Shown one piece after another: positions 1-21,566 of a DNA stretch of 64,000 nt (positions are counted from its first letter, which is position 1; every line of letters begins with the position of its first letter). The notes beneath the pieces were generated by a model, which was given only the letters and a program-made list of their open reading frames with translations, was not told the DNA's origin and did no database searches. Origin of the DNA: Pseudomonadota bacterium (GTDB lineage Bacteria; Pseudomonadota; Gammaproteobacteria; Burkholderiales; Burkholderiaceae_C); NCBI GenBank assembly GCA_040389925.1, contig JAZJZJ010000110.1:24504-88503 (forward strand), written 5' to 3'. Position numbers and translations under genes: made by a program.

Positions 1-2
1 CG

Positions 3-626
3 CCGATCCGTTACCTGCCGCTCAGCCTGGGCTACTCGGCCACCGTGAACGACAAGCAAGGCTTCTGGCAGGTCGGCACCGGGTTCACGGCGGCGCTGCG
101 CGGGCTCACGAGCCGCGCGCAGGAGTTCGCCGACAAGCGCTACAACGCGCAGAGCAATTTCGCGATCGTCAAGTTCGACCTCGCGCGCACCCAGACCCTG
201 CCGCGTGATTTCTCGCTGTTCGCCAAGCTCGAAGGCCAGATCACCGGCCAGCCGCTGATCAGCAACGAGCAATTCGTCGCCGGCGGTGCCGACAGCGTAC
301 GCGGCTACCTCGAGGCCGCCGCGGTCGGCGACAACGCGCTGCGCGGATCGATCGAGCTGCGCAGCGGTGCGCTCGCACCCGAGCGCTGGAGCTGGCTGGG
401 CGGGCTGCGCGCGCACGTCTTCCTCGAAGGCGCGGCGCTGTGGCTGAAGTCGCCGCTGCCGGCGCAGCAGCAGCGTTTCGGCCTGCTCGGCACCGGCGTC
501 GGCCTGCGCGTGCAGGCGCGCGAGCACGCGAGCCTGGCGCTCGACGTTGGCTGGCCGCTGCGTGACGTCGGGCAAACGCACAAGGGCTCGGTGCGCTTGC
601 ACGCCAGCGGTCTGTTCGAGTTCTGA
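3..626 (+). CDS. TpsB/ShlB/FhaC-family two-partner secretion outer-membrane transporter, C-terminal part (5' end outside window)
   Basis: Frame is open from the window edge. It carries the Omp85/TpsB loop-6 motif (EQFVAGGADSVRGY), amphipathic beta strands and a terminal Phe (GLFEF). Confidence 0.9.
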   Translation, partial: PIRYLPLSLGYSATVNDKQGFWQVGTGFTAALRGLTSRAQEFADKRYNAQSNFAIVKFDLARTQTLPRDFSLFAKLEGQITGQPLISNEQFVAGGADSVRGYLEAAAVGDNALRGSIELRSGALAPERWSWLGGLRAHVFLEGAALWLKSPLPAQQQRFGLLGTGVGLRVQAREHASLALDVGWPLRDVGQTHKGSVRLHASGLFEF

Positions 627-639: not shown

Positions 640-2913
640 ATGTCCAGGTCTCGACAGGCCGCCCGCCCGGCCGTTGCGGCGGCACCCCTCGTGCGCCAGC
701 GTGCCGCGCCGGACCCGATCGACCGCCTGGTCGAAGCGCAGCGCTTGCTGGCGGCCGGCCAGGCCGCACCAGCCGAGGCCTTGCTGCGGACCGTGCTGGC
801 GCATACCGCGCTGCGGCCCGAGGCCTGTTGCCTGCTCGCGATCGCCGCGCTGATGACCGGCGGCGCGCCCGCGGCCTTGGCGCATGCGCGCGAGGCGGTG
901 GCGGCGAACCCCGACGAGCCGCGCTATCAATTCACGCTCGGCCGCGCGTTCAAGGCCACCGGCGACCTCGACGGCGCCGAAGCCGCCTACCGCCGGGCGC
1001 TGGCCGTGCAGCCCGACTACCTGGAGGCGAGGGTCAGCCTGGGCATCGTGCTGAAGACGCGTGGCGACGTGGACGCCGCGATCGCCCAGTACGACCAGGC
1101 GCTGGCCCGCGACCCGACCTTCGCCGCCGCGCATGCGAATCGCGCCAACGCGCTGAGCTTGCGCGCCGCGCTCGCGGCCGAAGCGCCGCTCGACGACGTG
1201 CCCGACGACGCGGTGATCGAAGCCCAGGCGCGCGCCGTGGCGCTCGACCCGCGCAATGCGCTGCTGCTGCGCAACCTCGGCGTGCTGCTGCTGCGCGCGC
1301 GGCGGCGCCTGGACGCCGCCGAGGCCTTCAACCGGGCGCTGGCCGTCGACCCGGCCGATGTCGAGACCTGCCTGCACCTCGGCCTCTGCCTGCGCGCGAT
1401 GGGCGACTCCAAACTGGCACGCACGCTGTACGAGAAGTGGCTCGGCATGAACGCCGCCAGCGCGCCGGTGATGCGCGCGCTCGCCGGCATCCTGACGCGC
1501 GACGGCCAGATCGACGCCGCCCGCCCGTGGGCCGAGCGGGCCGCCGCGCTCGACCTCGACCCCTACGCGCTGATGCAGCTCGGCAGCACGCTGATGCAGT
1601 CGCGCCGGCTGGATGAGGCGCTCGCGCAGTGCCGGCGTGCGGTTGATCTTTCCGGCGGCAAGGCCGACATCTACCCGACCTTGCTGCTCGGCACGACCTA
1701 CCTGGACGAAGACCCGCAAGCCGTCTTCGACGTCCACGCCGAGTTCGGCCGGCAGCTGCCGCCCGCCGTCGCATCGCGACCGCGCTGGCAGCCGCTCGCA
1801 CCGGGCCAGCGCCTGAAGGTGGGCTACGTGTCGGGCGACTTCGTGCGCCATTCGGTGTCGTACTTCATCGGCCCGCTGCTGGCGCATCACGACAAGAGCC
1901 GCTTCGAGGTGACCTGCTACCACAACCTCGCGTGGGGCGACGCGGTCACCGAGCGTTTCAAGTCCCTTGGCCACCACTGGGTCGAATGCGAGGGCCTGTC
2001 GGACGAGCACCTGCGCCGGCGCATCGAAGCCGACGGCATCCATATCCTGATCGACCTGTCGGGCCACACCACGAACTCGCGGATCTTCATGTTCGGGCGC
2101 GCCAGTGCGCCGGTGCAGATCAGCTACTTGGGCTACCCGACCGTCAGCGGCGTGCCGGCGATCGACTTCCGCATCACCGATCCGGTCATCGATCCCGGCG
2201 ACATGCCGCCGCTCGCATCCGAGCAACCGCTGCGGCTGGCGCGCACGATGTTCTGCTACCGGCCCGACGAGCACACCCCGATCGGCCCGCCGCCGGTGCG
2301 CCGCGCCGGCCACATCACCTTCGGTTCGTTCAACAACATCGCCAAGGTCAGCGACCACACCCTCGATCTGTGGGCGCAGGCGATGAACGCCGTGCCCGGC
2401 GCGCGCCTGCTGCTGAAGTCGTCGTCGATGGCGCAGGCCTCGAACCGCGCCAACATCGAGCGCTTCATGGCCGAGCGCGGGGTCGGCGCGGAGCGCCTGA
2501 GCCTGCAGGCGTGGATCGCGAGCAAGCACAGCCACCTGGCGCTGTACAACGAGGTCGACGTCGCGCTCGACCCGTTCCCGTACAACGGCGCCACCACCAC
2601 CTGCGAGGCGCTGTGGATGGGCGTGCCCGTGGTCACGCGGCGCGGGCGCACGCATACCTCGCGCATGGGTGCCTCGCTGCTGCTCGCGATCAGCCGCGCC
2701 GAGTGGGTGGCCGACAACGACGCCGACTACGTGGCCACGATCGCGCGCGTGGCCGGCGACGTGGAAGGGCTCGCCCGCTGGCGCCTGCAGGCGCGCAGCG
2801 CGCTGGCCGCGAGCCCGCTGTTCGACGAACGCGGATTCGCGCAGGCCTTCGAGGCGGTGCTGGCGCAGGCCTGGGCGCTGGCCGGCAGGCCCGGCCAGCC
2901 GGTGTCGGGCTAG
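640..2913 (+). CDS. TPR-containing GT41 protein O-glycosyltransferase, SPINDLY-like
   Basis: N-terminal TPRs, then VGYVSGDFVRHSV, DLSGHT, SYLGYPTVSG, FGSFNNIAK and DPFPYNGATTTCEALWMGVP. No signal peptide. Start placed at ATG 640, 13 nt after the tpsB stop. Confidence 0.92.
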   Translation: MSRSRQAARPAVAAAPLVRQRAAPDPIDRLVEAQRLLAAGQAAPAEALLRTVLAHTALRPEACCLLAIAALMTGGAPAALAHAREAVAANPDEPRYQFTLGRAFKATGDLDGAEAAYRRALAVQPDYLEARVSLGIVLKTRGDVDAAIAQYDQALARDPTFAAAHANRANALSLRAALAAEAPLDDVPDDAVIEAQARAVALDPRNALLLRNLGVLLLRARRRLDAAEAFNRALAVDPADVETCLHLGLCLRAMGDSKLARTLYEKWLGMNAASAPVMRALAGILTRDGQIDAARPWAERAAALDLDPYALMQLGSTLMQSRRLDEALAQCRRAVDLSGGKADIYPTLLLGTTYLDEDPQAVFDVHAEFGRQLPPAVASRPRWQPLAPGQRLKVGYVSGDFVRHSVSYFIGPLLAHHDKSRFEVTCYHNLAWGDAVTERFKSLGHHWVECEGLSDEHLRRRIEADGIHILIDLSGHTTNSRIFMFGRASAPVQISYLGYPTVSGVPAIDFRITDPVIDPGDMPPLASEQPLRLARTMFCYRPDEHTPIGPPPVRRAGHITFGSFNNIAKVSDHTLDLWAQAMNAVPGARLLLKSSSMAQASNRANIERFMAERGVGAERLSLQAWIASKHSHLALYNEVDVALDPFPYNGATTTCEALWMGVPVVTRRGRTHTSRMGASLLLAISRAEWVADNDADYVATIARVAGDVEGLARWRLQARSALAASPLFDERGFAQAFEAVLAQAWALAGRPGQPVSG

Positions 2914-3194
2914 TCCGAACGCATCATGGGTGCCGTCACCCGAACCGATCGAAGGTCACACCGTGTCGGTAGATTCAATCGGTCTTTTGGATCGTCGTCA
3001 CCGGGGCCGCTGCGGACTAGGCTGAAGTAGCCACCCACCGCAGCGCCCCGCACACCGTGGCGACACAGCGGACTTCTACAGTCGCACGCATCGGAAGGTT
3101 CCCGCTCAGGGAGGCACGCCGATGTGATCGGGCTCCGACGGTCGGGTGAATCGGCAATCGGGACCCTGCACAAGCGTTACGTGAACATCAACCC

Positions 3195-3200
3195 AGGAGA
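3195..3200 (+). promoter_or_regulatory. Ribosome binding site of the VPLPA-CTERM gene
   Basis: AGGAGA 9 nt upstream of ATG 3210. Confidence 0.7.
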
Positions 3201-3209
3201 GAACTCTCA

Positions 3210-4052
3210 ATGAAACTGAAACTCAAGATGCTCGCCGTCGCCGCGGCGATGGCCTCGATGGCCGGCGCGGCCCACGCCGACCTGACGGCTCCCGGCTCCG
3301 CCAACGGCAGCCTGGCGCTGGTCGCGTTCAACACGGTGACCGGCTCCTACTACATGCGCGACACCGGCTTTCTCCTCAACAGCTTCCTGCCCACCGGCGT
3401 GACCACGCTGTCGGGTGACGGCAGCGTTGCTGGCGACAAGACCCCGGCCGCCGGCCTGCTGCTCGACAAGACCAACACCGCCTCGTTCGCCGACGCGTCG
3501 TTCAGCGGCTGGCTCGCCGGCCAGACCTTTGCCGACGTAAAGTGGTTCGTGAACGCCGTTGACGCCGTCGGCACCACGACCGCGACGAACGTCAAGCGTT
3601 TCATCACCTCGTCGGCCAACGCCGACGAATTCGCCACCAACGGCAACCTCGACGGCTTCATCGCCAACGCGGGTGCGGGCAGCCTGACGACGCAGTTCGG
3701 CACGGGCGGCTTGTCGGTGACCGGTTCCGGTGCGCCCACCGCATGGGGCACCAACTTCACCCTTGGCGCCGATGGCCTTGCCGCGGTCGACCAAAGCGTG
3801 AGCCTGTTCTACTTCTCGCGCACGGTCGGCACGGGTTCGACCACCTTGGCGGCCAACAAGACGCAATTCGGCAACGCCACCGGTTTCGCCACCGTCACGC
3901 TCGCCTCCAGCGGCGACTTCACCTACAACCTGGCGGGCGAGGCTCCCGCCGCCGTGCCGGTGCCGGCCGCTGCCTGGCTGCTGGGCTCCGGCCTGGTGGG
4001 CATGGGCGGCTTCATGCGCCGCCGCAAGGCCGCGGCCGCCGCCCAGGCCTGA
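3210..4052 (+). CDS. VPLPA-CTERM (PEP-CTERM-like) sorted surface protein
   Basis: Sec signal ending AAHA, an A/G/S/T-rich body, and a C-terminal VPVPAAAWLLGSGLVGMGGFM-RRRK (motif, TM helix, basic tail). Confidence 0.93.
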   Translation: MKLKLKMLAVAAAMASMAGAAHADLTAPGSANGSLALVAFNTVTGSYYMRDTGFLLNSFLPTGVTTLSGDGSVAGDKTPAAGLLLDKTNTASFADASFSGWLAGQTFADVKWFVNAVDAVGTTTATNVKRFITSSANADEFATNGNLDGFIANAGAGSLTTQFGTGGLSVTGSGAPTAWGTNFTLGADGLAAVDQSVSLFYFSRTVGTGSTTLAANKTQFGNATGFATVTLASSGDFTYNLAGEAPAAVPVPAAAWLLGSGLVGMGGFMRRRKAAAAAQA

Positions 4053-4060
4053 TTCAACGC

Positions 4061-4081
4061 GGGCTGACTCCAGCCCTTTTT
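4061..4081 (+). terminator. Intrinsic terminator after the VPLPA-CTERM gene
   Basis: GGGCTG-ACTC-CAGCCC stem-loop followed by TTTTT. A second GC-rich hairpin lies at 4089-4112. Confidence 0.75.
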
Positions 4082-4168
4082 GTCCCACCCGCCGCGGCTT
4101 CCGCTGCGGCGGTCTGGGCGGAGCGTTGCCAGAAATTCTCGTTCACACGACTCACCCTCAGGACTCTC

Positions 4169-5608
4169 ATGAAACTCAGCAAAATCTCCCTCGGCGTTGC
4201 CGCCGCCTGCGGCATCGTCGCCGCCCCGGCCCATGCCCTGCTGGCCAGCAGCTACACCAACACCGGCGAGTTCGCCGGCGACACGATGAACATCCGCGTG
4301 TCGGGCGCCACCGCGCAAGACCCGGGCCTGTTGGCTTCGGCACTGCGGTATTGCACCGTCGGTTCGATGACGCGCTACTCGATCTCGAACAACTTCGTGT
4401 ACTTCTGCACCGCCGACACGACCAAGATCACGCCGCGTGCCGGCGCGACCAAGGTTGCGTTCTACAAGTACTCGGTTGGTGGCTCGGGCGCCGGTGTCGG
4501 CCTCGTGAACGCGGGTGCGGCGAACGTGCCCTTCCTCGACCTGACCAAGCTTGCTTCGTCCTGCGCCGGCACCTCGTCGACAGCCGACGTCGACGGCACG
4601 GGCGTGCTCTCCACGTTCCAGGACATCGCCTGCGCCGGCGCCAGCTCCGCGCTGACGACCAACGCCGTCAGCTACATCGGCCTGTCGGACGTCGAGCCGC
4701 AGTTCTTCGGCGCGGCCAGCACCTACAACAACCTGAAGGCCGAAGGCCTGGCCACCGTGATCTTCGGCCTGCCGGTCTCGAAGGTCGCGTACGAAGCGCT
4801 GCAGACCGCGCAGGGCATCACCCCGGGTGGCATCACCGAGGCGGACATGCCGTCGCTGTCGCAAGCGCAACTGACCTCGATGTTCACGCAGGAAGGCCAG
4901 TCCTGGTCCGGCCTGACCGGCGCTTCGCTGGCCGACGACACGATCTACGTCGCCCGCCGCGTCGACAGCTCGGGCACGCAAAAGACCTTCGAGGCGGTAA
5001 TTGCCCGCACCAGCAACGGCACCCCTGGCGCTCGCGAGTGCCAGTCGTCGGTCGAGGCCTTCGTCTCCGGTGTTGCCGCGCTCGACAACACCGCCGCCAA
5101 CCTCGTTTGCGACGGCTCGAACCTCGTCGTCAACGGCAGTGGCAGCGGCCAGGTCGCGGCTTGCCTGAACAAGCATCAGGATGGCGCCCGCGGTGCGATC
5201 GGCGTGCTGACGACCGAGACCAAGCAAGCCGCCGGCGGCAAGTTCCGCTTCGTGAAGATCAACGGCCTGGCTCCGACCCATGCCAACGTGGCCGGTGGCA
5301 AGTACACCCAGTACTCCGATGCCTCGCTGAATACCCGTATCGGCGCGACGCTGCCGACCGCCTCGGCGGCCGGCTACTCGAGCTTCCTGACCAAGCTGAA
5401 GTCGGACTTCTCCGACCCGGCCGTCATCGCGGTGATCAACGGCGGTGTGCAGACCTTCGGCCCGTCCGGCCTGATGGCGCTCGACGCTCTCGAGTCGCCG
5501 GTTCCGGCCGCCGACTACACCGGCGCCACCGGCCGCAACCCCTGGTCGCGTCTGGTCGGCGGTACCGACCTGAACAACTGCCAGACCGGCAAGGCTGCAG
5601 CGTTCTGA
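4169..5608 (+). CDS. Secreted PstS/DING-fold phosphate-binding-like protein
   Basis: Signal peptide MKLSKISLGVAAACGIVAAPAHA. PstS-like motifs occur in order: SGATA, GGSGAG, GLSDVEP, RRVDSSGTQ, GAIGVL. Start corrected to ATG 4169. Confidence 0.75.
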   Translation: MKLSKISLGVAAACGIVAAPAHALLASSYTNTGEFAGDTMNIRVSGATAQDPGLLASALRYCTVGSMTRYSISNNFVYFCTADTTKITPRAGATKVAFYKYSVGGSGAGVGLVNAGAANVPFLDLTKLASSCAGTSSTADVDGTGVLSTFQDIACAGASSALTTNAVSYIGLSDVEPQFFGAASTYNNLKAEGLATVIFGLPVSKVAYEALQTAQGITPGGITEADMPSLSQAQLTSMFTQEGQSWSGLTGASLADDTIYVARRVDSSGTQKTFEAVIARTSNGTPGARECQSSVEAFVSGVAALDNTAANLVCDGSNLVVNGSGSGQVAACLNKHQDGARGAIGVLTTETKQAAGGKFRFVKINGLAPTHANVAGGKYTQYSDASLNTRIGATLPTASAAGYSSFLTKLKSDFSDPAVIAVINGGVQTFGPSGLMALDALESPVPAADYTGATGRNPWSRLVGGTDLNNCQTGKAAAF

Positions 5609-5661
5609 TTTCGCTCGAGAGGCTGCCGCCGCGAGGCGGTGGCTTCCAGCGCGAAACCCGG

Positions 5662-5691
5662 GCCAGCGTCTCGCAAGAGCGCTGGCTTTTT
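5662..5691 (+). terminator. Intrinsic terminator between convergent genes
   Basis: GCCAGCG-T-CTC-GCAA-GAG-CGCTGGC followed by TTTTT, preceded by a GCGA-loop hairpin at 5621-5644. Confidence 0.75.
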
Positions 5692-5711
5692 CCTTTCGTG
5701 CGAAGCCTGAC

Positions 5712-7736
5712 TCAGGGCAATCGTTCGCAGGCGAACGGCGCCGGCGGCAAACCGTCGCGAGCGCGTTGGACCATCTGGCGATAGGCCGCCTCCAAGTGGC
5801 GCGTGTAGCGCGGCGTGTCGTAGAGCGGCGCGGTGCGCAAGTTGGTCGCGAGGCGCTCGCGCAGCCCGGCCAGCAGGCCCGGCTCGGTGGCCAAGCGGTA
5901 CGCGAGCGTTTCGTAGGCCTCGAACGACTCGGTCACCAGCTCCGGCAGCCCGACAGCGTGCAGAAGGCTCGCGCCCACCCGGCTGGGGAAGGTCGGCCCG
6001 GTGCAGGTCAGCACCGGCAGGCCGGCCCACAGCGCATCGCTGCCGGTGGTGTGCGCGTTGTACGGCCAGCTGTCGAGGAACAGGTCGGCCAGGCGCAGGC
6101 GAGCCAAGTGCTGCTCGTTGCCCAGCGGGCCGCCGAAGACGATGCGTGAGGCCTCGACGCCGCGCGCCGCGGCCTCACGGCGCAGGTTGTCCTGTGCTTC
6201 CGGGGCCTCGCTGTAGAGCATCAGCACGCTGCCGGGCACGCGCTGCAGCAGGCGCATCCAGATGTCGAACACCGCCGGGGTGATCTTGTAGACGTTGTTC
6301 ATGCAGCAGAACACGAAGCCGTGTTCTGGCAGACCGACCTGCGCGCGTCGGTGCGGCTCGGTGCCGACCCGGCGTTGGCGGTCGTTGGGCTGGTAGGCGT
6401 CGGGCAAATACACGACCTGCTCGGTGTAGTGGTGCCGGTCGGCCGGCGGGACCACGACCTCGTCGGCGATCAGGTAGTCGATGTACGGCATGCCGGTCGT
6501 GCCGGGAAAGCCGAGGTAGTTGACCTGGATCGCCGTCGGCCGCGCCGCGAACAGGTGGTGGCGCGCGCGCCCGAAGTAGCCGTTGAGGTTGACCAGGATG
6601 TCGATGCCGCGCTCGCGCACCGCGGCCACCGCTGCCGCGTTGGCCAGCCGGCGGATCGGTACGATCTCGGTCGCGGCTTCGATGCGGCGCCGCAAGCTGC
6701 TGCAGTCGCCCCAGCCGTTGTCGAACGCGACGATCTCGAAGCCCGCGCGGTCGTGCAGTTCCAGCACCTCGGTCAGCAGCACCGAGGTCGCCTGGTTGCG
6801 AAACTCGCCGGCCACGTAGCCGACGCGGATCTTCGGGCCGTGGCCGATCCTCGCTTTCGGCAGCGACGCAGATCGGTCCGGCAGGTAGGCGGTGGCGTAG
6901 TTGCGCGCGGCGCGCAGCAGCAGTTCGGGCGACGCGCAGTAGCCCTGCAGGCCGAACGGTTCGGCGGCGAGGTGACCCGCGCTCACGGCCGCTTCGATGC
7001 GCTGCTGCAGGTGATCGAGCGCGGTCCAGTCGGCGCCCAGCATCTTGGTGTGCATCAACCGGCCCGCGACGAGCGGCCGGTCGGGTTGCAGCTGCAGCAG
7101 GCGCTCGAACACCAGCGAGGCATCCTCGAAGTGGCGCTGGTCCTGCAGGGTCTGGCCGAACAGTTCGATCACGTCGAGCCGCGTCGGGTCGATCTGCAAC
7201 GCCCGCTGGAAGCTGGCCCCGGCTGCTTCGGGGCGGTCGAGGTGGCGCTGCATCACGCCGAGCGCGGCCCAGGCGTCGGCCGCGTCAGGGTGGTGCTGCA
7301 CGGCGTCCTGGAAGCCGGCCAGCGCCTCGTCGGCGCGGCCCTGCTCGTCGAGCGTGGTGGCCCGGTGCAGCCGCGCCATCAGCTGCAGCTGGGCGTCGCC
7401 CGGGTCGAGCGCGGCGGCGCGCTCGAAATGCGTGCCAGCCTCAGCGTTGAGCCCCTGCCGCCGCAGCGCTCGCGCCAAGTCCGCATGGGCCTGCGCGTGA
7501 TCCGGCTGCGCCGCCACGGCGGCGCGGAACCAGTGCACCGATTCGTCGCCTCGCTCCTGTTCGGCCGCGAGCGAGCCCAGGCCTCGCATCGCGTCAAGGC
7601 GGCCCGGCTGGCGCGCCAGCAGCGCGCGAAAACCGGCCTCGGCGTCCGACCAGGGACGGGCATCGTGCAGGCGCTGCGCGGCCCGCAGCGGGTCGAGTGC
7701 GCCGGTCGGCGGGGAAGGGGCGGCGGAAGTGGTCAT
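5712..7736 (-). CDS. TPR-containing GT41 O-GlcNAc transferase-like protein (OGT/SEC-like)
   Basis: TPRs, then DILVNLNGY, VNYLGFPGTTG, NNVYKIT and DSWPYNAHTTGSDALWAGLP. No signal peptide. Confidence 0.92.
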   Translation of the reverse strand: MTTSAAPSPPTGALDPLRAAQRLHDARPWSDAEAGFRALLARQPGRLDAMRGLGSLAAEQERGDESVHWFRAAVAAQPDHAQAHADLARALRRQGLNAEAGTHFERAAALDPGDAQLQLMARLHRATTLDEQGRADEALAGFQDAVQHHPDAADAWAALGVMQRHLDRPEAAGASFQRALQIDPTRLDVIELFGQTLQDQRHFEDASLVFERLLQLQPDRPLVAGRLMHTKMLGADWTALDHLQQRIEAAVSAGHLAAEPFGLQGYCASPELLLRAARNYATAYLPDRSASLPKARIGHGPKIRVGYVAGEFRNQATSVLLTEVLELHDRAGFEIVAFDNGWGDCSSLRRRIEAATEIVPIRRLANAAAVAAVRERGIDILVNLNGYFGRARHHLFAARPTAIQVNYLGFPGTTGMPYIDYLIADEVVVPPADRHHYTEQVVYLPDAYQPNDRQRRVGTEPHRRAQVGLPEHGFVFCCMNNVYKITPAVFDIWMRLLQRVPGSVLMLYSEAPEAQDNLRREAAARGVEASRIVFGGPLGNEQHLARLRLADLFLDSWPYNAHTTGSDALWAGLPVLTCTGPTFPSRVGASLLHAVGLPELVTESFEAYETLAYRLATEPGLLAGLRERLATNLRTAPLYDTPRYTRHLEAAYRQMVQRARDGLPPAPFACERLP

Positions 7737-7968: not shown

Positions 7969-10900
7969 ATGAAAACCCGTTCTGCTCGTTCCCGTGTCGC
8001 TCCTCCGGCTCGCGATGAGGCTTGGCCGCAGCAGAGCAGTTGCAGCGTGCTGGTGCTGGCGGGCTTGGGCCTGCTGGGCCTGGCGCTGCCGCACGCAGTG
8101 CAGGCGCAGACCGCGGGCGCCGTGCTGCCCGCCAACACCGTGCCGGTGCTGCGCAGCGTGGTCAGCGGCCAGGCGGTGGTCAACGCGCCGGTGCTGGGGG
8201 CAGGGCGCTCGCTGCTGACGATCGACCAGAGCTCGCAGCGCGCCATCATCGACTGGCGTTCGTTCAACATCGGCAGTGCCGCCGAGGTGCAGTTCCGCCA
8301 GCCCAACAGCACGGCGTCGACCTTGAACCGGATCTACGACGCCAACCCGACGCTCATCCAGGGCAAGCTCACGGCCAATGGCCAGCTGCTGCTGATCAAC
8401 CAGAACGGCATCCTGTTCGACCGGGGTGCGCAGGTGAACACGCAATCGCTGGTGGCCTCGACGCTGAACCTGACGAACGAGCGTTTCCTGTCGGGTGTGC
8501 TCACCGATGGCGGCCTGACGAAGCCGGCGTTCGAGGGCGGCTACGACGCCGCCGGCAACACGCTGGCCGGGCGCCCCGACGGGACGCGCCCGGGCGACAT
8601 CGGCGTCGGTACCTTCGGCGCGGCGGATGCGGCGGCGCCGAAGCTCGCGGCCAACGCCGGCGGCTCGATCATGATTTTTGCGCCCCGCATCGACAACCAG
8701 AGCGGGCTGATCAGCGCACCCGATGGCCAGGTGATCCTGGCGGCCGGCGCCAAGGCCTACCTGGCGCTCAACGACGACACCAACGACATCACGCTGCGCG
8801 GCTACCGCGTCGAGGTCGAGGCGGTGCCGGACGGCCCGGCGCTGAACCTGAGCAACCTGATCCGCAATGCCGGCGAGATCAGCGCCGACCGCGGCAACGT
8901 GTCGCTGGCGGCGCTGGCCGTCAATCAGGAAGGCCGCGTCTCGGCCAAGACCGCGGTGCAGAGCAACGGCTCGATCTACCTGAAGGCGCGCACCAAGGAC
9001 GGCGCGCAGTCGGGTGCGGTGAGCTTCAAGGCCGGCAGCGTGACCGAGGTCGTGCCGGATGCGGCCGACACCAGCACCGTGGCCGACAGCCAGGACTACA
9101 CGCTCTACCGCGGCGTGATCGAGGTGACCGGCCGCACGATCGTCAACGAGGGCACGCTGCGCGTGCCGGGCGGGCGCATCGCGCTGACCGCCGCCGACGC
9201 CACCGACCCGACGGCGGCGCGCGTCTACCTCGGCGCCGGCAGCGAAACCAGCGTCGCCGGTGCCTGGGCCGATGTGGACTACAAGAAGAACCTGCAGACC
9301 TTCCGCGTCACCTCCAACGAGCTGAAGAACTCGCCCGACCAGAAGACCGGCATCCTGCGCGGCGCCACCGTGACCGTGGATCTGCGCGAGGCCAACAACA
9401 TCCTCGAACTCGATGGCTACCGCGACATCGTGGCGCGCACCGTGACCGAGAAGGCCGGCGCCGGCGGCGAGCTGCAGATCGCCTCCAGCGGCTCGGTGGT
9501 CCAGCGCAGCGGGGCCCTGATCGACGCCTCCGGCGGCGGCTACCGCTACAACGGCGGCACCGTCAACACCTCGCGCCTGCTCGGCGACGACGGCAAGATC
9601 TACGACATCGCCAGCGCGCCCGAGCTGCGCACCTACACCAGCCTGCTCGACAGCTTTCAGCGCACCGACGCACGCTGGGGCCAGACCACCACGATGGCCA
9701 ATCCGCTCGGCACCGTGGGCGCGTACCAGGCCGGTTATTCCGAGGGCTTGGCGGGCGGCTTGGTGGCGATCAACGCCAACGCCGGGCTGGTGCTGGACGG
9801 CACGCTGAAGGGCGGCGTGACGGTGGGTTCGCACCAGCTAGCGAGCGCAGCGCGCGGTGCGACCTTGCGCATCGGCGAGTACGTGCCGACAACCGGCAGC
9901 TTCGCGCAGGCGCAGCGCATCGGCAACCTCACCTGGAGCCAGCAGGCGACCGACATGCTGGGCGCCAGCTTCAACGCGAACACGGCGCTCAGCGAACTGC
10001 AACGCGACGCGGTGACGCTGGCTGCGGGCCAGGTGTTCGGTGCCGCGACCCCCTCGGCCGACGGCCGCGTCGAGTCCGGCTTCGGTACGGTCGAGCTGAA
10101 CGTGAACGGCCGCATCGTCGTGCCGTCCGAGGTCAGCATCGTGGCGGACGTCGGCGGCGCGCTGATCCTGCGCGCGCCGCAGATCGACATCGCGGGCGAC
10201 ATCCGCCTGCCGGCGGGCAATCTGTTGATCCGTCCGGTGCTGCCACAGAGCGAGCCGATCTCACCCGACCTCGTCAGCGCGATCGAGCGGGTAACCGTGC
10301 GCGCTGGCGCCGACCTGTCGACCGCGGGCACATGGATCAACAACGCCAACCGCGACGGGTCGTTCGTCGGCACGCCCACGCCCTCCGGGCGATTGAATGC
10401 GGACGCGAGCGCGACGGCGCTGGCGATCGACGGCGGCAACATCACGATCCAGATCGACGACCCGAACCATCAGACCCGCCTCGAACGTGGCGCCACGCTG
10501 GACGTGGGCGGCGGTGCGTCGATCGCCAGCAGCCAGCGCGTCAGCGGCGGCAAGGGCGGCAAGTTGGCGATCGGCAACGGCAGCGCGAGCCAGACCAGCT
10601 CGGACTGGATGCAGGCCGAGCTGCGCGGTTTCGCGCTCGCCAACGGCGGCGAGCTGAACCTGAGCTTGGCGCGTGCGGTGATCGATGCGGATGACGCGAA
10701 CGGCGTGCTGCCCGGCAACACCACGCGGCTCGAGGCCGGGCTGTTCTCGGACCGGGGCTTCTCGAAGATCGGCATCACGGCCACCGACGGGATCGACATC
10801 GTCGCCGGCACGCAGCTGCTCGTGCAGCAGAAGAACCTGCTCGTCGACCCGCTGGCCGCGGCGCAGCTGCCCACCGGCGGCGACCTGGCGTCGATCGCCG

Positions 10901-13900
10901 GCGTGCAGCTGCTGCCGGATTCGAAGCGCGCTGCGGCATCGCTCGCGCTCAACGCCAAGGCCGGCGGCCAGCCCGGGGCGGCGACGCTGACCCTGAACCG
11001 CGAAGCGTCGATCAGCGTCGACCCCAAGGGCGAGGTCGCGCTGTCGGCGGTGAACGGCCTGACGACCGACGGGCGCATCAATGCACCCGGCGGCAAGGTC
11101 GGCCTGACGCTGAACGGTCCGGTCGATCTGACGGCGCCTGACCTGCGCCTCGGCAGTGCGGCCGTGATCTCGACCGCCGGCGTCTTCGTGCCCACGCCCA
11201 ACGATCGCGGTCTGGTGCAGGGCACGCTCGTCAACGCCGGCGCCGTTACGCTCGACGCCAAGAACGCCGGCGTGCAGGTCGCGGCCGGCGCGCGCATCGA
11301 CGTGAGCGGCGTCAACCAGACCGTCGATGTCGCCACCTCCGGCGAGCAGCCGGCCCTCGCGCAGCAGACCCTCGAAGGGCAGGCCGGTGCGTTGATCGTC
11401 AAGTCGCAGGGCGGCGCCGCGTTCGACGGCGCACTGCTCGGTCACGGCGGTTCGGCCGGCGCGGCCGGCGGCAGTTTCGCGCTCGAATTGATGCGCCCCG
11501 ACGGCCAAGCCAGCTTGCCCGACGAGCGGCGCATCGTCGTCACCTCCGGCCGCAATCGGGTGCCCACCGAATCCGGGCTGGTGGACGCCACCGTCAACAT
11601 CGACGAGCTGACCGCGCGCGGGTTCGAGAAGCTGCGCCTGCAGTCGGAGAACCGGATCGAATTCCAGGGCTCCTCGACGCTCGCGTTCGAGCGCGGCATC
11701 CGCCTCGACGCGCCGCTGATCGAGGTGGCCGGCGACGCGCGCGTCGAGTTGCGCGCGTCGACGGTGTCGCTCGGGCAGTCACTGGGCGAGCGCCAGCTCG
11801 CGTCCGGCAGCGACGGCGACATCTGGCAGATCGCCGACGGCTCGGTCGCGCCCACGCTGGCGACCCGCGCTGGCGGCGGCGTGCTCGGGGTCAGCGCCGG
11901 CGCGGTGAACCTGTACGGCAGCCTCACCATCAACGGCACCAGCCTGACGCGCATCGAGAGCGACAGCGACATCCAGCTCATCGGGCGGCCGGTCACCTTC
12001 GCCTCCACGACCGGCGGGCAGCCGGTGTCACGGCAGATCGGCGCCCTCACCAGCGCCGGCAACATCGAGCTCGAAGCGGCGCAGGTCTACCCGGCCACGC
12101 GAACCGAGTACACGTTCTCGGTCAGGGACCAGCCCACAGGCACGCTCACTGACGGCGGCCTCATCTCGATGGCCAGCAACGGCAACGCGGCCGGCAGCGT
12201 TTACTCGGCCGCCGGCAAGCTGACGCTCGAGGCGCAGACCATCGTGCAGGCCGGCACGCTGAAGGCGCCGCTGGGAGAGATCGATCTGCGAGCCGGCAAG
12301 CTGCTCGAGCTGGCCGATGGCAGCCTGACCTCGGTTTCCGGCAACGGCCTCGACGTGCTCTATGGCACCACGCTGGCGGGCATTCTGTGGCGCTACACGG
12401 ACGGCAGCGCGACCACCGCGACGAGCCTCGATTCGGTCACCGAAGCGGGCAAGCACATCACGCTGAGTGCGCCGACGACGAACGTGCGCTCCGGCGCGAG
12501 CGTGGACCTCAGCGGCGGCGGCGATGTGCTTGCGGTCGAGTTCGTGCCGGGCAACGGCGGTGACACCGACATCACGTTGCGCGACAACACCTACGCGATC
12601 ATCCCCACGGCCAAACTGGCGGCGATGCCGTTCGACAGCCACACCCTGGCACTGAAGGACCCGGGCTTCGGCTTCGCGCTCGGCAGCGGGCGCGACACCG
12701 CGCTCTACGACAGCATCCGGATCGGCGCCGGCGCGGCCGTGCCGGCCGGCGAGTACACGCTGCTGCCGGCGCGCCACGCGCTGCTGGCCGATGCCTACCT
12801 GGTGGAACTGGCCACCGGCTCGGCCTACCGCAATCTCCAAGCCGGCCAGACCACGACGTTGGCCAACGGCGACGTGGTCGTCGCCGGCTTTCGCAGCGCG
12901 CGCGGCACGAGCGTGCGCGAATCGCAAAGCGTGGGCGTGATCGTCAGCGCCGGCGCGGCGGTGAAGCAGTCGTCCGACTACAACCTGAGCGGCGCTTCGT
13001 TCTTCGCCGACGCGGCCGCGCTCGAGCGCGTCGCCGCACCCCGCGCGCCCTGGGATGCCGGGCGGCTGTCGATCGAAAACGCGACGGCACTGACGCTCTC
13101 CGGCAGCTTCGAAACCGCGGCCGCAAGCTCGGCATCGAAGGCGGCCGGCCGCGCCGCGGAGATCGACATCGCCGGCGGCCGCATCGCGGTGGTCGATAGC
13201 GTCGGCGACGCGACCGTGGATGCGAGCTATCTGCAGATCGCCGGCGAGTCACTGTCGCGCCTGCAGGGCAGCGTGCTGCTCGGCGGCACGCGCAGCGACA
13301 CCGACACCGGCATCCGCATCAGCACCAGCGCCAGCGACGTGCTGGTCGCCAACAGCAGTGCCGGCGCCGTGCGCGTGCCCGAGCTGATGCTCGCGGCCAC
13401 CGACAGCATCGACATCCGCGCCGGCAGCGTGCTGGCCGGCACCGGCACCGCCGTGGGCAGCTCGCCGCAGGTCATCGGCAGCGAAGCCTCGGGCGCGCTC
13501 GTGCGCCTGAGCAACGGCGACCAGACGCGGCTGGATCGCGGCACGGCCAGCGCCGCCAGCGGCGTTGTCCGGATTGCGGACAGCGCCAGCCTGAGCGCCG
13601 ACAAATCCCTGCTGATCGATGCGACCCAATCCACCGAGTCGGCGGGCCAGTTGCGCGCCGGCGGGGCGCTCGGCGCCGGCGGCTCGCTGAGCCTGTCGTC
13701 GGTGCAGGTGAGTCTGGGTGACACCGCCAATGCGGCCGGCCCGCTCGCCGGGCTGGTGCTGTCGAACACCGATCTCGCGGCCTTCGGCGCGCTCGATGAA
13801 CTGGTGCTGCGCGGTTATGGCGCGATCGACCTGATCGGCAGCACCACCTTGGGCTCGGCGAGCCTCGGCCACCTGACCCTGGACACCCCGTTGCTGCAAG

Positions 13901-16900
13901 GCCGTGCCGGCGCCGACGGCCGCGCGCCGCAGGCCACGCTCGCGGCGCGCGAAATCGAACTCGCGAACCACAGCACGGCCAGCGCCGCAACGACCACCGG
14001 CACCGGCAGCTTGGGCGCGAACGCCGAACGCGTCGTGATCGGTGCCGGCGCGAAGGCCGTGTCCGGCTTCGCCAGCACGCAGCTGACGGCGCGCGACCAC
14101 GTGCTCAGCGAAGGCGAGGGCGCGCTGCGCGTGGCCGGTGCGCTGACACTGCAAGCCCCGCGCGTGCAGGCGCGCGGCGGATCGAAGCAGATCGTGAGTG
14201 CGGTGGACACCAGCCAGGCCGACACGCCCGTCTACGCGGCGTTGACCGTGGCCGGCGCGGCAGCTGCCGCAACGGCCGCAACCGATGCGATCGAACTGGG
14301 TGGACGGCTCACGCTGGAAGGCCGCAACGTCGCGGTGGCCACCACGGTGCAGGCGCGCTCGGGGCAGATCACCGTCGCCGCGCGCGGCGCCGACAGTGGC
14401 GACGGCGTCACGCTCGCCAGCGGCGCGCTGCTCGACGCCCGCGGGCAGGCGAAGGATTTCAACGGCAGCATCACCACGGCCGACGGCGGCACGGTGGCGC
14501 TGAACACCGCGACCGGCGCGGTGGCCGTGCAGGCGGGCGCGAAGGTCGATGTTTCGGCGGCGGTCGAAGGCGGCGCGGGCGGTCGGGTGACGGTTCAGGC
14601 GGCCGCGCTGGCGCTGGCCGGCGAACTGGCCGGCCGCGCCGGCGCGGGCGAGCGCTCCGGCTCGGTGGCCCTGGACCTCGGGGCACTCGCGAACTTCACG
14701 TCGCTGAACACCGCGCTGAACGCGGGCGGTTTTGCCGAGGAGCGGCAATTGCGCGTGCGCAGCGGCGACCTCGCGGTGGCTGCAACCGACAACGTCGCGG
14801 CACGCCGCGTCACGCTCGCCGCCGACACCGGGCGCATCGACGTGGCCGGCACGATCGGCCCCGGCGCCGCGGACGGCGGTGCGCGCGTCAATCTGTTCGC
14901 CGACACCGGCCTCGCACTGGCGGCCGGCAGCCGGATCCTCGCCAACGGCAGCAACGCAGGCGCGCGCGGCGGCGAGCTGCGCATCGCCACGCGCACCGGT
15001 GCGCTGGACTTCGACAGTGCCGCGACGATCGACGTTCGCGCCGGTGATGCCGGCGTGGCGGGCTCGGTGATCTTCGGCGTGGGCCGCGACGACAACAATG
15101 CGATGGGCGCGACCCGACTCGACGGCACGGTGAAGCGCTGGAGCGATGCCGGCCTGGCCGCGCGCAGCGCCGGCGTGGCGGGCGATCCGGCCGCGTCGGT
15201 GGACCTGGAAGCCACCCGCACTTACCGCGTGGGCAGCGGCGACGCCGTCGACATCGACACACTCGGCGCGGACCATGCGGCCTTCGTCGCTGTCGACAAT
15301 GCGGCGACGACCCGTGCGCTGCGCGACGAGACCGGCGCGCTCGCCGGCGCGCGCGTGCTCGGCGCGACCGAAGTGCAGAGCACCGGCAACCTGACGCTTG
15401 CGTCCGCGTGGGACCTGACGAACGCACAGTGGCTGGCGGCCGACCTGCCCGGCACCCTGACGCTTCGGGCAGCGGGCGACCTAACGCTGAGCCGATCGCT
15501 CGGCTCACCCAACGACGCCCTGCGCGCCGGCGACACCTGGAACCTGCGCTTGGTGGCCGGCGTCGATCTGGCTGCGGCGAACCCGCTCGCCACGCTGACG
15601 GCCGACCGCCTGCCGGCCGACACCGGCTCGCTCATGCTCACCGGCGCGAACGCCAAGCTGCGCACCGGCACCGGCCGCGACAACGTCGCGGCGACCATCT
15701 ACCCGGCTGGCCGCATCGGCGCGACCGATAGCGCGAATACCGACAGCGCCAGCTACGACCGCTGGGCGGTCGACGGCGGTGGCATTTCGATCACCGCGGG
15801 CGGCGAACTCGCCGCTGCCGACGGCGCCGGCCGCGACCTGTGGATCAACGAATGGCTGCGCCGGCCGCGCCAATCGAACGCGGCGTTCACGGCCCTGCAA
15901 CCGACCGACTGGTGGAGCCACCGGCCGCGCTTCCAGCAGGGCGTGGGCACGCTGGGCGGCGGCGACATCGACATCGCGGCGGGCGGCAGCGTCAGCAACC
16001 TGGCAGCGATGTTGCCGACCAGTGGCCGCACTTACCGTGACGACAACGGCGTGCGCCAGGTCGACGTGCAAGGCGGCGGCAACCTGAGCGTGCGCGCCGG
16101 CGAAGACGTGGTCGGCAGCTCGTTCCTGGTGGCGCGCGGCGCCGGCCGTGTCGAAGCGGCGGGCGACATCGGCACGACCAAGGCCACACAGTTGTACGTG
16201 ATGGGCGCGAGCAGCGGCGCGGTGCCCGAGGGCGCAAGCATCGATCTCGTGGCGGGGGGCGCGGTGGCGCTGCAGAGCGTCAGCAACCCGACGGCGATGT
16301 TCATCCCCAACAAGGATGCGAGCGACGCCGCGACCGGCCCGAGCTTCGGCACCCAGGGCAGCTTTTCGACCTTCTTCACCTATTCGGCGAGCAGCCGCGC
16401 CGGCGTGACCGCCAAGAGCGGCGATCTGGCGTACGAAGCGGTGCTTTCGGACGCCGGCACGTGGCGCACCTTCAACAGGGCGTCGCAGATCAACGCCGAG
16501 CGCACCCAGTTCTTCGGTGCGTTCCCGGCCAGTCTCGACTTCAGCGCCTTCAACGGCGACATCTCGGGTCCCTTGTTGTCGGATGCGATCACGACATTTC
16601 CATCGACCACTGCCCACGTGACGATGTTCGCCGGCGACTCGCTGGTCAACGTCGGCTTCTACAGTTCCGACCGCGACCCGGCCACGGTGATCACGCCGAC
16701 CACCAGCGTTGAACTCGCCAACATCGGCGCGCGCCAGATCGATGGTCGCGCGGGGCTGCAGCCGACCGCTGGCCAGGCGCGCATCGTGTCGCGGGAGGTC
16801 ACGAACCCCTACGCCTTCGAGCTTCAAGCCCTGAACGGCAGCATTCAGGCGAGCGAGAGCGCCACCGCGGTCGTCTTTACCGCGGCCGGCCGGGTGCGCG

Positions 16901-19814: not shown

Positions 19815-21566
19815 ATGAAAAAACTGATACTCCTCGGCCTCGCGCTGGCCTGCCTGCTCGGCGCCTCCCTGTCGCATGCGGCTTGGAATCCGGACTGGAA
19901 GCAGCGCAGCAAGATCGGCCTCAACACCGCTGCGGACGGCTTGGCGATCACCGCCGCGGTCGACTCGGCCGCGGTGCTCGTGCGTCTGCACACCGGCAAC
20001 TTCCAGTTCGTCGAGGCCAAGCCCGACGGCACCGACCTGCGCTTCGTCGCGGCCGACGACAAGACGCCGCTGAAGTACCACATCGAAAAGTTCGACGGCC
20101 TCAACGAACTGGCGCTGGTCTGGGTCCAGGTGCCCAAGCTCGCGCCCGGCGCCAAGAGCGACTTCGTCTGGCTGTACTACGGCAACCCTGCGGCCGCAGC
20201 CGGCGACGACGCCAAGGGCACGTACGACGCGGCGCAAGGCTTGGTCTACCACTTCGGCGAGCGTGAGGCGCTGCCGCAGGATGCGACCGCCAATGCGAAC
20301 CACGCGGTGCGCTCGACCGCCAAGTCGGTGGGTACCGGCCTGATCGGTGGCGGACTGGTCTTCGACGGCAGTGCGGAGCTGGTGCTACCGGCGACGCCGT
20401 CGCTGAAGTCCGCGACGAACGGGATGACGCTGTCGCTCTGGATCAAGCCGGCCGAAGGCGCCGACGCGGCGCTCTATGCGCAGACCGAAGGCGCCGGCGG
20501 ATTGCGCGTGTCGCTGCGCGGCGGCAAGCTGGTGGCGCAGTCGGGCGCGCTGACGGCCACCTCGGCCGCGCCGGTGAACCCGCTCGCGTGGCAGCACGTG
20601 GCGGTGGTCGCGAAGGACGGACTGACGCTCTACCTGAACGGCCAGGAAGTCGGCAAGGCCGCCGGCGTCGTGCCGGAGCTGGGCGGTGCTGCCGTGGTCG
20701 GCAAGGGTTTCAAGGGCGAGATCGACGAGCTTCAGGTGTCGACCACGGCCCGCCAGCCCGACTGGATCAAGGTGATCGCGCAATCGCAGGGGCAGGATCA
20801 GAAGCTGGTCGTGTATGGCCCCGCGGACGATGGCGCCGAAGCCGACGGCGGCCCGTCGTACCTGAAGATTCTGCTGAGCGCGGTGACCCTGGACGGCTGG
20901 ATTGTCATCGGCATCCTGATGGTGATGTTCGTGATCAGCGTCTACGTGATGATCGCGAAGGCCGCGTTCGTGCGCACCGCGGCGCGTGACAACGAGCGCT
21001 TCAAGGCCCAGTTCGAAAAGTTGTTCGACTCGATCGTCACCGGGCCGACCGGCGACGGCAATCCGGTGCGCGACGAGAAGGTCGCGGCGCGGCGCTTCAA
21101 GGGCTCGTCGCTGTACCGGCTTTACGCCGCCGGGGCGCACGAGCTGCGCAGCCGCTTCGAGGTCTATGCGAAGGCCGGGCGCGATCCGCTGCTCAGCGAC
21201 CAGTCGATCAACGCGATCCGTGCCACCGTCGACGCGCGCCTGGTGCGCGAGCAGCAGCGCCTGAACTCGCAGATGGTGCTGCTGACGATCTGCATCGCCG
21301 GCGGTCCGTTCCTCGGCCTGCTCGGCACGGTGGTCGGCGTGATGATCACCTTCGCGGCGATCGCGGCGGCCGGCGATGTGAACGTCAACGCGATCGCGCC
21401 CGGCATCGCGGCGGCGCTGGTGGCCACGGTGGCCGGCCTGGCGGTCGCGATTCCGGCGCTGTTCGGCTACAACTACCTGACCAGCAAGATCGGCGAGCTG
21501 ACCTCGGACATGCAGGTCTTCATCGACGAGCTGGTCACGCGCATCGCCGAGACCCACTCGGTCTGA
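19815..21566 (+). CDS. exbB: DUF2341/LamG-domain fused ExbB/MotA/TolQ proton channel
   Basis: Signal peptide; WNPDWKQRSKI..DGTDLRFVAADDKTPL (DUF2341-like); LamG-like WQHVAVV; C-terminal GPFLGLLGTVVGVM and PGIAAALVATVAGLAVAIPA. Confidence 0.9.
   Translation: MKKLILLGLALACLLGASLSHAAWNPDWKQRSKIGLNTAADGLAITAAVDSAAVLVRLHTGNFQFVEAKPDGTDLRFVAADDKTPLKYHIEKFDGLNELALVWVQVPKLAPGAKSDFVWLYYGNPAAAAGDDAKGTYDAAQGLVYHFGEREALPQDATANANHAVRSTAKSVGTGLIGGGLVFDGSAELVLPATPSLKSATNGMTLSLWIKPAEGADAALYAQTEGAGGLRVSLRGGKLVAQSGALTATSAAPVNPLAWQHVAVVAKDGLTLYLNGQEVGKAAGVVPELGGAAVVGKGFKGEIDELQVSTTARQPDWIKVIAQSQGQDQKLVVYGPADDGAEADGGPSYLKILLSAVTLDGWIVIGILMVMFVISVYVMIAKAAFVRTAARDNERFKAQFEKLFDSIVTGPTGDGNPVRDEKVAARRFKGSSLYRLYAAGAHELRSRFEVYAKAGRDPLLSDQSINAIRATVDARLVREQQRLNSQMVLLTICIAGGPFLGLLGTVVGVMITFAAIAAAGDVNVNAIAPGIAAALVATVAGLAVAIPALFGYNYLTSKIGELTSDMQVFIDELVTRIAETHSV

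Follow-up and report, generated by a model that had tools for sequence, protein, structure and literature searches.

The two TPR-bearing GT41 proteins, GT41a and GT41b, encoded at one end of the window (the whole 64,000-nucleotide stretch of DNA analysed) are best explained as an accessory system for the cytoplasmic O-glycosylation of exported proteins of the same gene cassette, with a GDP-fucose-type donor for GT41a and a small UDP-sugar for GT41b; we give this explanation about an even chance of being correct. Soluble TPR-GT41 enzymes were probably added to a widespread secretion cassette and would attach single sugars to Ser/Thr residues of its exported proteins while these are still in the cytoplasm. 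The donors, likely GDP-fucose or a similar GDP-6-deoxyhexose for GT41a and likely a UDP-sugar smaller than GlcNAc for GT41b, are proposed from published structure-derived signatures; protein acceptors are suggested by the TPRs, the conserved TPR asparagines of GT41a and the precedent of the family, and the pre-export timing by topology. For GT41a we favour the VPLPA-CTERM protein as acceptor, since this neighbour stays in place when the surroundings are rearranged; TpsA and the PstS-like protein may be acceptors too. As each enzyme type occurs without the other, the two likely act independently, and both are dispensable for the cassette. A narrower version, which we hold only tentatively, would make GT41a a bacterial SPINDLY-type protein O-fucosyltransferase acting in the cytoplasm, ahead of Sec export, on an exosortase-sorted VPLPA-CTERM surface protein as its native substrate and perhaps also on TpsA, and GT41b the representative of a new GT41 subfamily, of Glu/Gln type and gated by Tyr, that uses another UDP-sugar, the two forming a bacterial SPY/SEC counterpart that dresses biofilm-matrix proteins.

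The window opens with the 3' end of tpsB (positions 1–626, forward strand; Pfam ShlB; full gene on contig C110), encoding an outer-membrane transporter of the ShlB/FhaC family, followed after a gap of 13 bases, and so likely in the same operon, by GT41a (640–2913, forward; 757 aa). A conserved tandem promoter-like motif (two copies of GWCAY-N10-12-TAnnnT; 2955–3082, forward) lies 5' of the VPLPA-CTERM gene (3210–4052, forward; 280 aa), whose product has a signal-like N-terminus and a weak PepA-family match. Regulation here points to an EpsA-type LuxR protein. A terminator-like hairpin with a T run (4061–4076, forward), a consensus match only and of a kind found three times in the region against 3.7 times in shuffles, precedes the PstS-like gene (4169–5608, forward; 479 aa), which encodes a secreted protein in which cysteines are conserved and the motif RRVDSSGT occurs. 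GT41b (5712–7736, reverse; 674 aa) stands head-to-head with tpsA (7969–18525, forward; 3518 aa; TPS domain and DUF3739), and genes for DUF2341-ExbB, ExbD, a TonB-like protein, Porin_5 and a coiled-coil protein (19815–25003, forward) complete the core cassette, which comprises type II secretion, PEP-CTERM, PstS-like, tpsBA and exbBD-tonB-porin genes and is widespread without GT41. The more distant xrtD (33034–34644, reverse), for a VPLPA-CTERM-specific exosortase (TIGR04152, 570.9 bits, cut-off 400), is surrounded by an exopolysaccharide locus with wza, a chain-length determinant, a tyrosine kinase, prsT and glycosyl- and acyltransferases. All genes and motifs of the preliminary description were found in place, and its view that neither GT41 carries a signal peptide agrees with a simple hydropathy scan, in which GT41a and GT41b (1.23 and 0.52) had no N-terminal hydrophobic stretch; the VPLPA-CTERM and PstS-like proteins reached 1.99 and 2.33.

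In both enzymes the TPRs lie N-terminal to the catalytic domain, and PF13844 is matched with 168 bits by GT41a and 263 bits by GT41b (cut-off 25). The best solved relative of GT41a, which carries DLSGHT at residue 472 and YNGATTTCEALW at 648, is AtSPY (279 bits; human OGT, 153 bits). Its D400, H404, S405, V406, N565, N566 and K569 correspond to AtSPY D491, H495, S496, V497, N661, N662 and K665, and its K593, H632, L635, Y648, A651, T652 and E656 to K689, H728, A731, Y744, T747, T748 and E752. By the K689/A731/Y744 signature, taken from section 7 of PMC10027727, a GDP-fucose-type assignment is supported at the level of sequence: the guanine-binding Lys (K689) was found in 27/27 copies, the A731 position was non-Arg in all 27 (Ala in only one; Leu here), and the Y744 position of the fucose pocket held Tyr in 24 and Phe in three. 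The H495/S496/V497 equivalents occur in all 26 complete copies, and TPR residues Asn167 and Asn212 are invariant (25/25). This signature favours the O-fucose type proposed earlier for this enzyme, as do two genes some 15 kb upstream of GT41a, gmd and an fcl-like gene. Among the fucose contacts S496, V497, I592, K665 and T747, GT41a keeps Ser, Val and Lys and has Leu at I592 and Ala at T747, the latter in 27/27 copies; since T747A lowers plant SPY activity to 10% (PMC10027727), its sugar may differ from L-fucose. Compared with SPINDLY (AtSPY and TgSPY, protein O-fucosyltransferases of GT41), GT41a has the same TPR plus GT41 build and the residues listed above, apart from a larger non-Arg residue at A731 and Ala at T747, but its TPRs are fewer and its Asn ladder is less dense, and it is bacterial and encoded beside exported-protein genes, whereas SPY targets are nuclear or cytosolic.

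GT41b (NLNGY at 383, YNAHTTGSDALW at 559) is nearest by sequence to XcOGT (Xanthomonas XCC0866; 270 bits), which also ranks first among the OGT structures matched by its predicted model. It retains K484, H543, R546, H562, T563, T564 and D567, whereas E311 and Q315 replace Asp554 and His558 of human OGT, a difference that sets it apart also from XcOGT and plant SEC. The Gln site is presumably His218 in XcOGT. Y559 stands at the position of C917, the Cys making room for the N-acetyl group in human OGT, and this Tyr and the uridine-type Arg are common to GT41b and XcOGT. Among cassette copies, the uridine-recognition pair (Arg at R904, non-Lys at L866) and the Tyr are each found in 23/23, the catalytic Lys, His-Thr and Asp in 21/21, and Gln at the His558 position in 21/23, with His in two nested duplicates. 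That GT41b merely binds, with weak catalysis or none, and leaves GT41a as the sole sugar transferase is very unlikely. In favour of this reading, human OGT, TgSPY and AtSPY all need His558 to be active, the corresponding Phe mutant of the fly enzyme retains 3% activity, Gln is seldom found at the site (13 of 262 motifs in a set of 150 representatives), and 7 of 29 loci are without GT41b. Against it, the donor-binding residues are all invariant, the Glu/Gln pair is maintained across a wider clade, and His is back in nested duplicates (loci L015, L018 and L076), which suggests tuning of a live site.

Both published SPY structure studies report a steric conflict between the N-acetyl group and a Tyr in place of Cys917, so that this Tyr and the Gln at His558 make the O-GlcNAc activity previously assigned to GT41b unlikely; judged from these residues, it likely uses a sugar other than N-acetylglucosamine. 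A scheme in which GT41a adds O-fucose and GT41b O-GlcNAc, mainly to TpsA and in the style of HMW1C on HMW1, is accordingly quite unlikely. It would fit the higher score of GT41b on human OGT than on SPY (232 against 155 bits), the head-to-head arrangement of GT41b with tpsA or tpsB-tpsA in opposite-strand loci, a 9-kb insertion in locus L026 that leaves GT41b with tpsBA, and the fact that XcOGT, which also has the Tyr, can bind UDP-GlcNAc and put label on a single plant protein. However, among 28 other family genomes in which a TpsA with DUF3739 occurs (some on short contigs), only two have a GT41 gene within 20 kb of it, and neither enzyme is HMW1C-like. HMW1C modifies a TpsA in the cytoplasm (PMC5422565), and the three-gene systems of this type (hmw1ABC, etpBAC) share with the present locus a GT41-family enzyme of the cytoplasm whose gene accompanies tpsA and tpsB, but HMW1C N-glycosylates Asn sequons with hexoses. 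The analogy does not extend to family membership: the NGTferase (N-glucosyltransferase) model gave 23 bits for GT41b (cut-off 1000) and no match for GT41a, GT41b scored 24 bits with the nearest solved chain labelled Adhesin, and N-X-S/T observed/expected counts in two-enzyme loci (88/88, 133/128, 171/146) were not above those of GT41-less loci.

In GT41 trees without a reference SPY sequence, the two proteins fall into separate, cassette-linked clades, as expected from the earlier recognition of two subtypes. The loci compared come from related genomes, and their counts are not independent events. In 26 of 28 loci GT41a is found upstream of the VPLPA-CTERM/PstS-like pair, at a distance of two genes at most; the gene preceding it is tpsB in some loci and prsT in others, and it still stands at the VPLPA gene under no fewer than three upstream arrangements. 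Judged from spacing, GT41a shares a transcript with tpsB or prsT; the VPLPA gene, preceded by a promoter motif of its own, is not included in it. GT41a-anchored searches placed in the cassette all five clade members with flanking DNA from metagenomes and all six matches of at least 56% among 400 family genomes. Of 29 loci, 22 carry GT41b, five have GT41a alone and two have neither. The bracketing of two secreted genes by convergent GT41s holds in 18 of the 22, but tpsB stands on the opposite side of the block in nine loci, and of the dedicated two-sugar pathway put forward in the preliminary description, the conserved link to the cassette stands and the obligatory pair does not. Rubrivivax rivuli KYPY4 (L029) is a named strain with both GT41 genes. 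Other GT41s of these genomes adjoin flagellin or pilin genes, and the flagellin-linked ones fall outside both cassette clades. That the enzymes modify cytoplasmic, regulatory proteins, as plant SPY and SEC do, with a cassette link due only to shared regulation or history, is highly improbable: SPY and OGT targets are intracellular and a neighbour shared by a whole clade can be passed on without any functional tie, but GT41a persists at the VPLPA gene through the rearrangements above, and bacterial GT41s here repeatedly adjoin surface-protein genes.

The candidate acceptor VPLPA-CTERM protein exceeds the TIGR03370 cut-off (26.7 bits against 25.35), and its tail co-occurs with XrtD in this genome, both models being above cut-off. 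The PstS-like protein had no Pfam match and a weak one to TIGR02136; its predicted model (pLDDT 86.9) has a PstS fold by Foldseek (best E 1.9e-10), with PstS proteins first and DING proteins lower. Ser and Thr make up 19.6% of the former and 19.4% of the latter, exceeded by only 13 and 15 of the 2,854 predicted proteins of at least 200 aa in the same genome, so the earlier description of both as Ser/Thr-rich is apt; it fails as a pointer to substrates, since Ser/Thr content and N-X-S/T counts are the same in the only two close GT41-less loci. It is improbable that the acceptors are the pilin-like subunits (pseudopilins) encoded in the neighbouring type II secretion genes. In Synechococcus elongatus, glycosylation of PilA depends on the TPR-GT41 protein Ogt (PMC9306852), three further GT41s of the present genome flank pilA, a pseudopilin-like gene lies directly 3' of GT41a in L037 and L089, and such genes occur in 5/5 genomes tested; but cassettes without GT41 retain them too, and in prsT-type loci they are more diverged in sequence (38–43%) and separated by tens of kb or placed on a different contig, with GT41a remaining by the VPLPA gene.

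The fcl-like gene (identity at least 54%) was found in 28 of 31 related genomes and not in G380, a fragmented assembly that has GT41a; as it often adjoins xrtD, the fucose could serve polysaccharide alone. That one or both GT41s build a glycan (an exopolysaccharide repeat, a lipid-linked oligosaccharide or a second sugar on a first one), with no direct transfer to protein, is unlikely, though several observations agree with it. The cassette is fused to the XrtD exopolysaccharide locus in most genomes (xrtD above cut-off in 26 of 34), prsT precedes GT41a in seven loci, both GT41-less loci are also without xrtD and have a VPEP tail, FkbM methyltransferase genes adjoin GT41s in four loci, and GT41b is without the peptide-binding His and Asn motifs (0.13 Asn-ladder motifs per protein against 1.79 for GT41a). 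At the same time, a complete chromosome (L038) retains GT41a beside the cassette, whereas xrtD and Wzz orthologues were not found there and the putative polymerase had no match in a search without its own positive control; Gln-type GT41b relatives stand alone in three genomes without a GT41a-clade match; and the characterised GT41 activities in the literature cited are transfers to protein, plus the hexose-on-hexose extension by HMW1C.

The closest working precedent for protein glycosylation by the cassette enzymes is Synechococcus Ogt, a cytoplasmic TPR-GT41 with a surface-protein target and an effect on biofilm (PMC9306852), but there one enzyme with reported use of UDP-GlcNAc acts on a pilin, whereas here two subtypes occur and no major pilin is encoded in the locus. 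The hxc-PA0688-pdtAB-exbB2-exbD2-PA0695-PA0696 region of Pseudomonas aeruginosa, compared by gene content only, likewise has type II secretion genes, a small secreted phosphate-related protein, tpsA/tpsB, exbB, exbD, a tonB homologue and further secreted proteins, and the gene table consulted contains no glycosyltransferase or PEP-CTERM gene (PMC2729926); it has an ECF sigma factor in place of the EpsA-type protein indicated here. PEP-CTERM/exosortase systems of the XrtD/VPLPA-CTERM type have in common with the locus the VPLPA tail, xrtD, prsT, EpsA and exopolysaccharide genes, and cytoplasmic GT41s are not tied to such proteins in the portions of the literature covered, although PepA of floc-forming bacteria has several processed or modified forms, with glycosylation suggested (PMC9850573). 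Flagellin glycosylation islands with GT41 and FkbM (PMC4875605) and Caulobacter FlmG (PMC7591256) offer TPR-bearing cytoplasmic transferases, methyltransferases and an adjoining exported-substrate gene, but flagellin uses the flagellar export route and the candidates here have Sec-type signal peptides.

The locus offers enzymes with named candidate substrates, variants in which the genes are naturally lost, a read-out by fucose lectin and a named strain. It also makes testable the suggested glycosylation of PEP-CTERM proteins of floc-formers. To our knowledge, the native substrate of the two solved bacterial OGT-like enzymes is not known, and none was revealed in vitro for XcOGT and TtOGT. SPY-like genes are common in bacteria and very few are characterised (PMC10027727). 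Should the GT41s only help to build polysaccharide, the GT41 enzyme repertoire would be widened instead. If protein O-glycosylation is their role, a bacterial SPINDLY-type enzyme would gain a testable natural target in environmental Burkholderiales, and a soluble bacterial O-fucosyltransferase would be useful in glycoengineering.

The two TPR-GT41 genes lie between tpsB, which ends at 626, and tpsA (7969-18525, forward strand), a single-copy gene. GT41a, the SPINDLY (SPY)-like enzyme (640-2913), is followed on the forward strand by the gene for a VPLPA-CTERM protein (3210-4052) and that for a secreted PstS-like protein (4169-5608), and GT41b, the XcOGT-like enzyme (5712-7736), is encoded on the reverse strand; all of the motifs named for them in the preliminary description were found. 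Downstream of tpsA are a GT4 gene, genes for DUF2341-ExbB, ExbD and a TonB-like protein, and Porin_5, after which comes an exopolysaccharide locus that includes prsT as well as xrtD, the VPLPA-CTERM-specific exosortase gene. On the same contig, approximately 13-18 kb upstream of the window (L001:1826-6942), the type II secretion genes are preceded by ugd, gmd, an fcl-like gene (479.8 bits, slightly below the 500 cut-off of its model) and a WcaI-like glycosyltransferase gene; an EpsA-type regulator is also encoded upstream. A second fcl type directly adjoins xrtD in many relatives. An ORF at the beginning of this contig (L002:513-1493) has a putatively relaxase-like start, which may belong to an integrated mobile element.

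Both enzymes proved to be conserved components of this arrangement. Among 31 loci gathered via the PstS-like protein, mainly from Rhizobacter, Rubrivivax, Methylibium and other Burkholderiales, GT41a was located no more than two genes from the VPLPA gene in 26 of the 28 with upstream DNA (22 directly adjacent, three with GT41b and one with a pseudopilin gene in between) and was missing from two; for two of the three truncated loci, the same adjacency was recovered on other contigs. The upstream neighbour of GT41a varied (tpsB in 14 cases, prsT in seven, an FkbM gene in two, another gene in one and a contig end in two). GT41b was present in 22/29 loci; 18 of these have it in the opposite orientation, and in the other four it lies upstream with the same orientation. 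In a quick tree of 76 rows (IQ-TREE and FastTree were used, both without plant or animal reference sequences), GT41a (29 rows, SH-aLRT 100) and GT41b (23 rows, 98) formed separate clades, neither of which included the GT41s linked to flagellin or pilin genes in these genomes; thus, the original distinction of two GT41 subtypes holds. When the search was anchored on the enzymes instead (79 metagenome loci), all five GT41a-clade members with flanking DNA resided in the cassette, and in 400 family genomes, with at most four candidates per genome scored, 6/6 GT41a matches of at least 56% and 5/5 GT41b matches of at least 64% were cassette copies. These counts demonstrate conservation, not independent origins, because the genomes are kin. 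The feature is real and conserved: two dedicated, distinct TPR-GT41 lineages are grafted on a secretion cassette.

Several other GT41 neighbourhoods were encountered. PEP-CTERM genes occurred near distant SPY-like GT41s in 5/73 other metagenome loci (L095, L110, L130, L133 and L148), too few to count as added linkage, since some genomes contain many PEP-CTERM genes. The marine metagenome contigs L148 and L110, in loci unrelated to the cassette, carry VPLPA-type CTERM genes among SPY-like GT41 genes and, respectively, TPR-sulfotransferase and methyltransferase genes. Within the collected loci, an FkbM-family methyltransferase gene is inserted beside the GT41s in L018, L021, L033 and L034, and a small class I methyltransferase gene in L057 (3147-3659), an arrangement that hints at sugar methylation in certain lineages. 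On contig C93 of the window's own genome (L004:5437-17274), pilA and two PglL-like O-oligosaccharyltransferase genes are flanked by three more GT41 genes of the SPY side, and L069 shows a similar layout; the motifs of these three are unlike those of GT41a, with His-Pro-Val and Gln or Lys at the position of SPY K689.

Among solved structures, GT41a scored highest against Arabidopsis SPY (279 bits), followed by TtOGT (225), human OGT (153) and XcOGT (108). The donor-specificity positions singled out in the accessible text of Kumar et al. (PMC10027727) are K689/A731/Y744 in SPY versus L866/R904/C917 in human OGT, with mixed patterns in prokaryotic enzymes. Mapped through the printed alignments, GT41a carries Lys/Leu/Tyr at these positions; all 27 relatives have Lys at the first, a non-Arg residue at the second and Tyr or Phe at the third, and Ala at the T747 position is common to all relatives. 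GT41a retains invariant TPR asparagines, whereas Asn-ladder motifs are nearly absent from GT41b.

GT41b scored highest against XcOGT (270 bits; human OGT 232, SPY 155), and its predicted structure is likewise closest to XcOGT. Its mixed pattern at L866/R904/C917, Tyr/Arg/Tyr, reads as putative uridine-type base recognition combined with a narrow sugar pocket. Zhu et al. (PMC9715652) single out the Y744/C917 position, occupied by Tyr in XcOGT, and doubt that UDP-GlcNAc serves this enzyme well as a donor. In addition, Glu and Gln replace D554 and H558 of human OGT in 21/23 cassette copies, the remaining donor-binding residues being invariant in all 21 aligned copies; excerpts of two studies describe His558 as important for activity (PMC7949088, PMC4703063). 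The O-GlcNAc transfer initially proposed for GT41b is thus not supported, given the Tyr at the C917 position and the Gln at the His558 position. Gln at the His558 position is uncommon (13 of 262 motifs from 150 representatives, in a broad profile search used for this tally only, whose matches are mostly multi-domain fusions), and Glu/Gln relatives of GT41b also stand alone in four genomes. His is back (EFRNHAV) in duplicates nested within the GT41b clade (L015:7094-9010, L018:3580-5508 and L076:1724-3760), a natural pair from which to learn what Gln does. UDP-xylose is not supported as the donor: the uxs-like gene (42678-43619), named by likeness with no specific model passed, was found in 23/31 related genomes and not found in six GT41b-bearing ones, one of them approximately 95% complete, although incomplete assemblies could hide it.

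Ser/Thr richness of the two bracketed proteins was borne out (top 0.5% of the genome), but as a sign of a substrate it failed, since it was equal in GT41-less loci (21.1% versus 20.6% for the VPLPA protein, 18.5% versus 19.1% for its PstS-like neighbour) and likewise high in 10/11 unlinked PEP-CTERM proteins of the same genome (14.7-23%). N-X-S/T sequons were not enriched and were the same with or without GT41; neither enzyme is HMW1C-like, and the analogy with HMW1C first drawn is not supported. Gene order favours the VPLPA/PstS-like pair as the substrate of GT41a; a pseudopilin may be an acceptor, and the products of two VPLPA-like-tail genes just 5' of the pseudopilin gene and tpsB (L001:17123-18357), one with a choice-of-anchor E domain, are possible further candidates. 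Earlier studies describe cytoplasmic glycosylation of exported PilA by Synechococcus Ogt of the same family (PMC9306852), HMW1 modification by HMW1C in the cytoplasm (PMC5422565), flagellin islands containing GT41 and FkbM genes (PMC4875605) and the further precedent of FlmG (PMC7591256); these precedents support the view that enzymes of this family glycosylate exported proteins in the cytoplasm. PepA occurs in several forms, with glycosylation suggested (PMC9850573), excerpts of the first PEP-CTERM publication make no connection to a GT41 (PMC1569441), and XcOGT and TtOGT are presented without native substrates (PMC2556091, PMC4683255).

The PstS-like protein is predicted to have a PstS fold; members of its family, for which Pfam gave no match, share several invariant cysteines. 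Its gene directly follows a PEP-CTERM gene even in distant cassettes (L051, L160), which suggests a surface role with the PEP-CTERM protein rather than ABC transport.

Two forward-strand copies of the promoter-like motif GWCAY-N10-12-TAnnnT, each preceded by a CTAG-containing box, lie 5' of the VPLPA gene (2955-2975 and 3062-3082). The motif was present there in 29/31 cases, the set from which it was derived, and also 5' of the EpsA-type gene (11/12), an Arc-like gene (7/7), xrtD (6/7) and wcaF (4/7), with fewer than one expected for each. It was not found 5' of GT41a (0/25), GT41b (0/20) or tpsB (0/24), and a sigma-70 scan gave no site. Judged by spacing, transcription of GT41a is tied to tpsB or prsT and that of GT41b to tpsA or tpsBA.

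The core cassette exists without GT41a and GT41b, and the pathway is accessory. Loci L019 and L020 lack both enzymes, carry a VPEP tail and have no xrtD above the cut-off; the cassette on Aquabacterium olei plasmid pTB101 comprises type II secretion, LuxR, PEP-CTERM, PstS-like homologue, tpsBA, exbBD, tonB and porin genes with no annotated GT41, and a GT41 gene lies within 20 kb in only 2/28 other family genomes with DUF3739. Compared by gene content alone, the core is like the Pseudomonas aeruginosa hxc-pdtAB-exbB2D2 region, as far as described in the accessible text of PMC2729926. In the complete chromosome L038, GT41a is still beside the cassette, gmd-fcl is located elsewhere, and no xrtD or Wzz orthologue was found; hence, GT41a follows the secreted proteins rather than the polysaccharide machinery. 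Both enzymes are retained in two more genomes in which xrtD was not detected, one of them, perhaps incompletely assembled, with the locus-type uxs.

In the mechanism considered most likely, the exported proteins of the cassette would be O-glycosylated in the cytoplasm, with a GDP-fucose-type donor used by GT41a and a small UDP-sugar by GT41b, a proposal whose chances we regard as about even. No published description of this GT41-bearing cassette was found in a literature search covering few subscription papers. The value of the finding is that bacterial SPY-type O-fucosylation and PEP-CTERM glycosylation are made directly testable.
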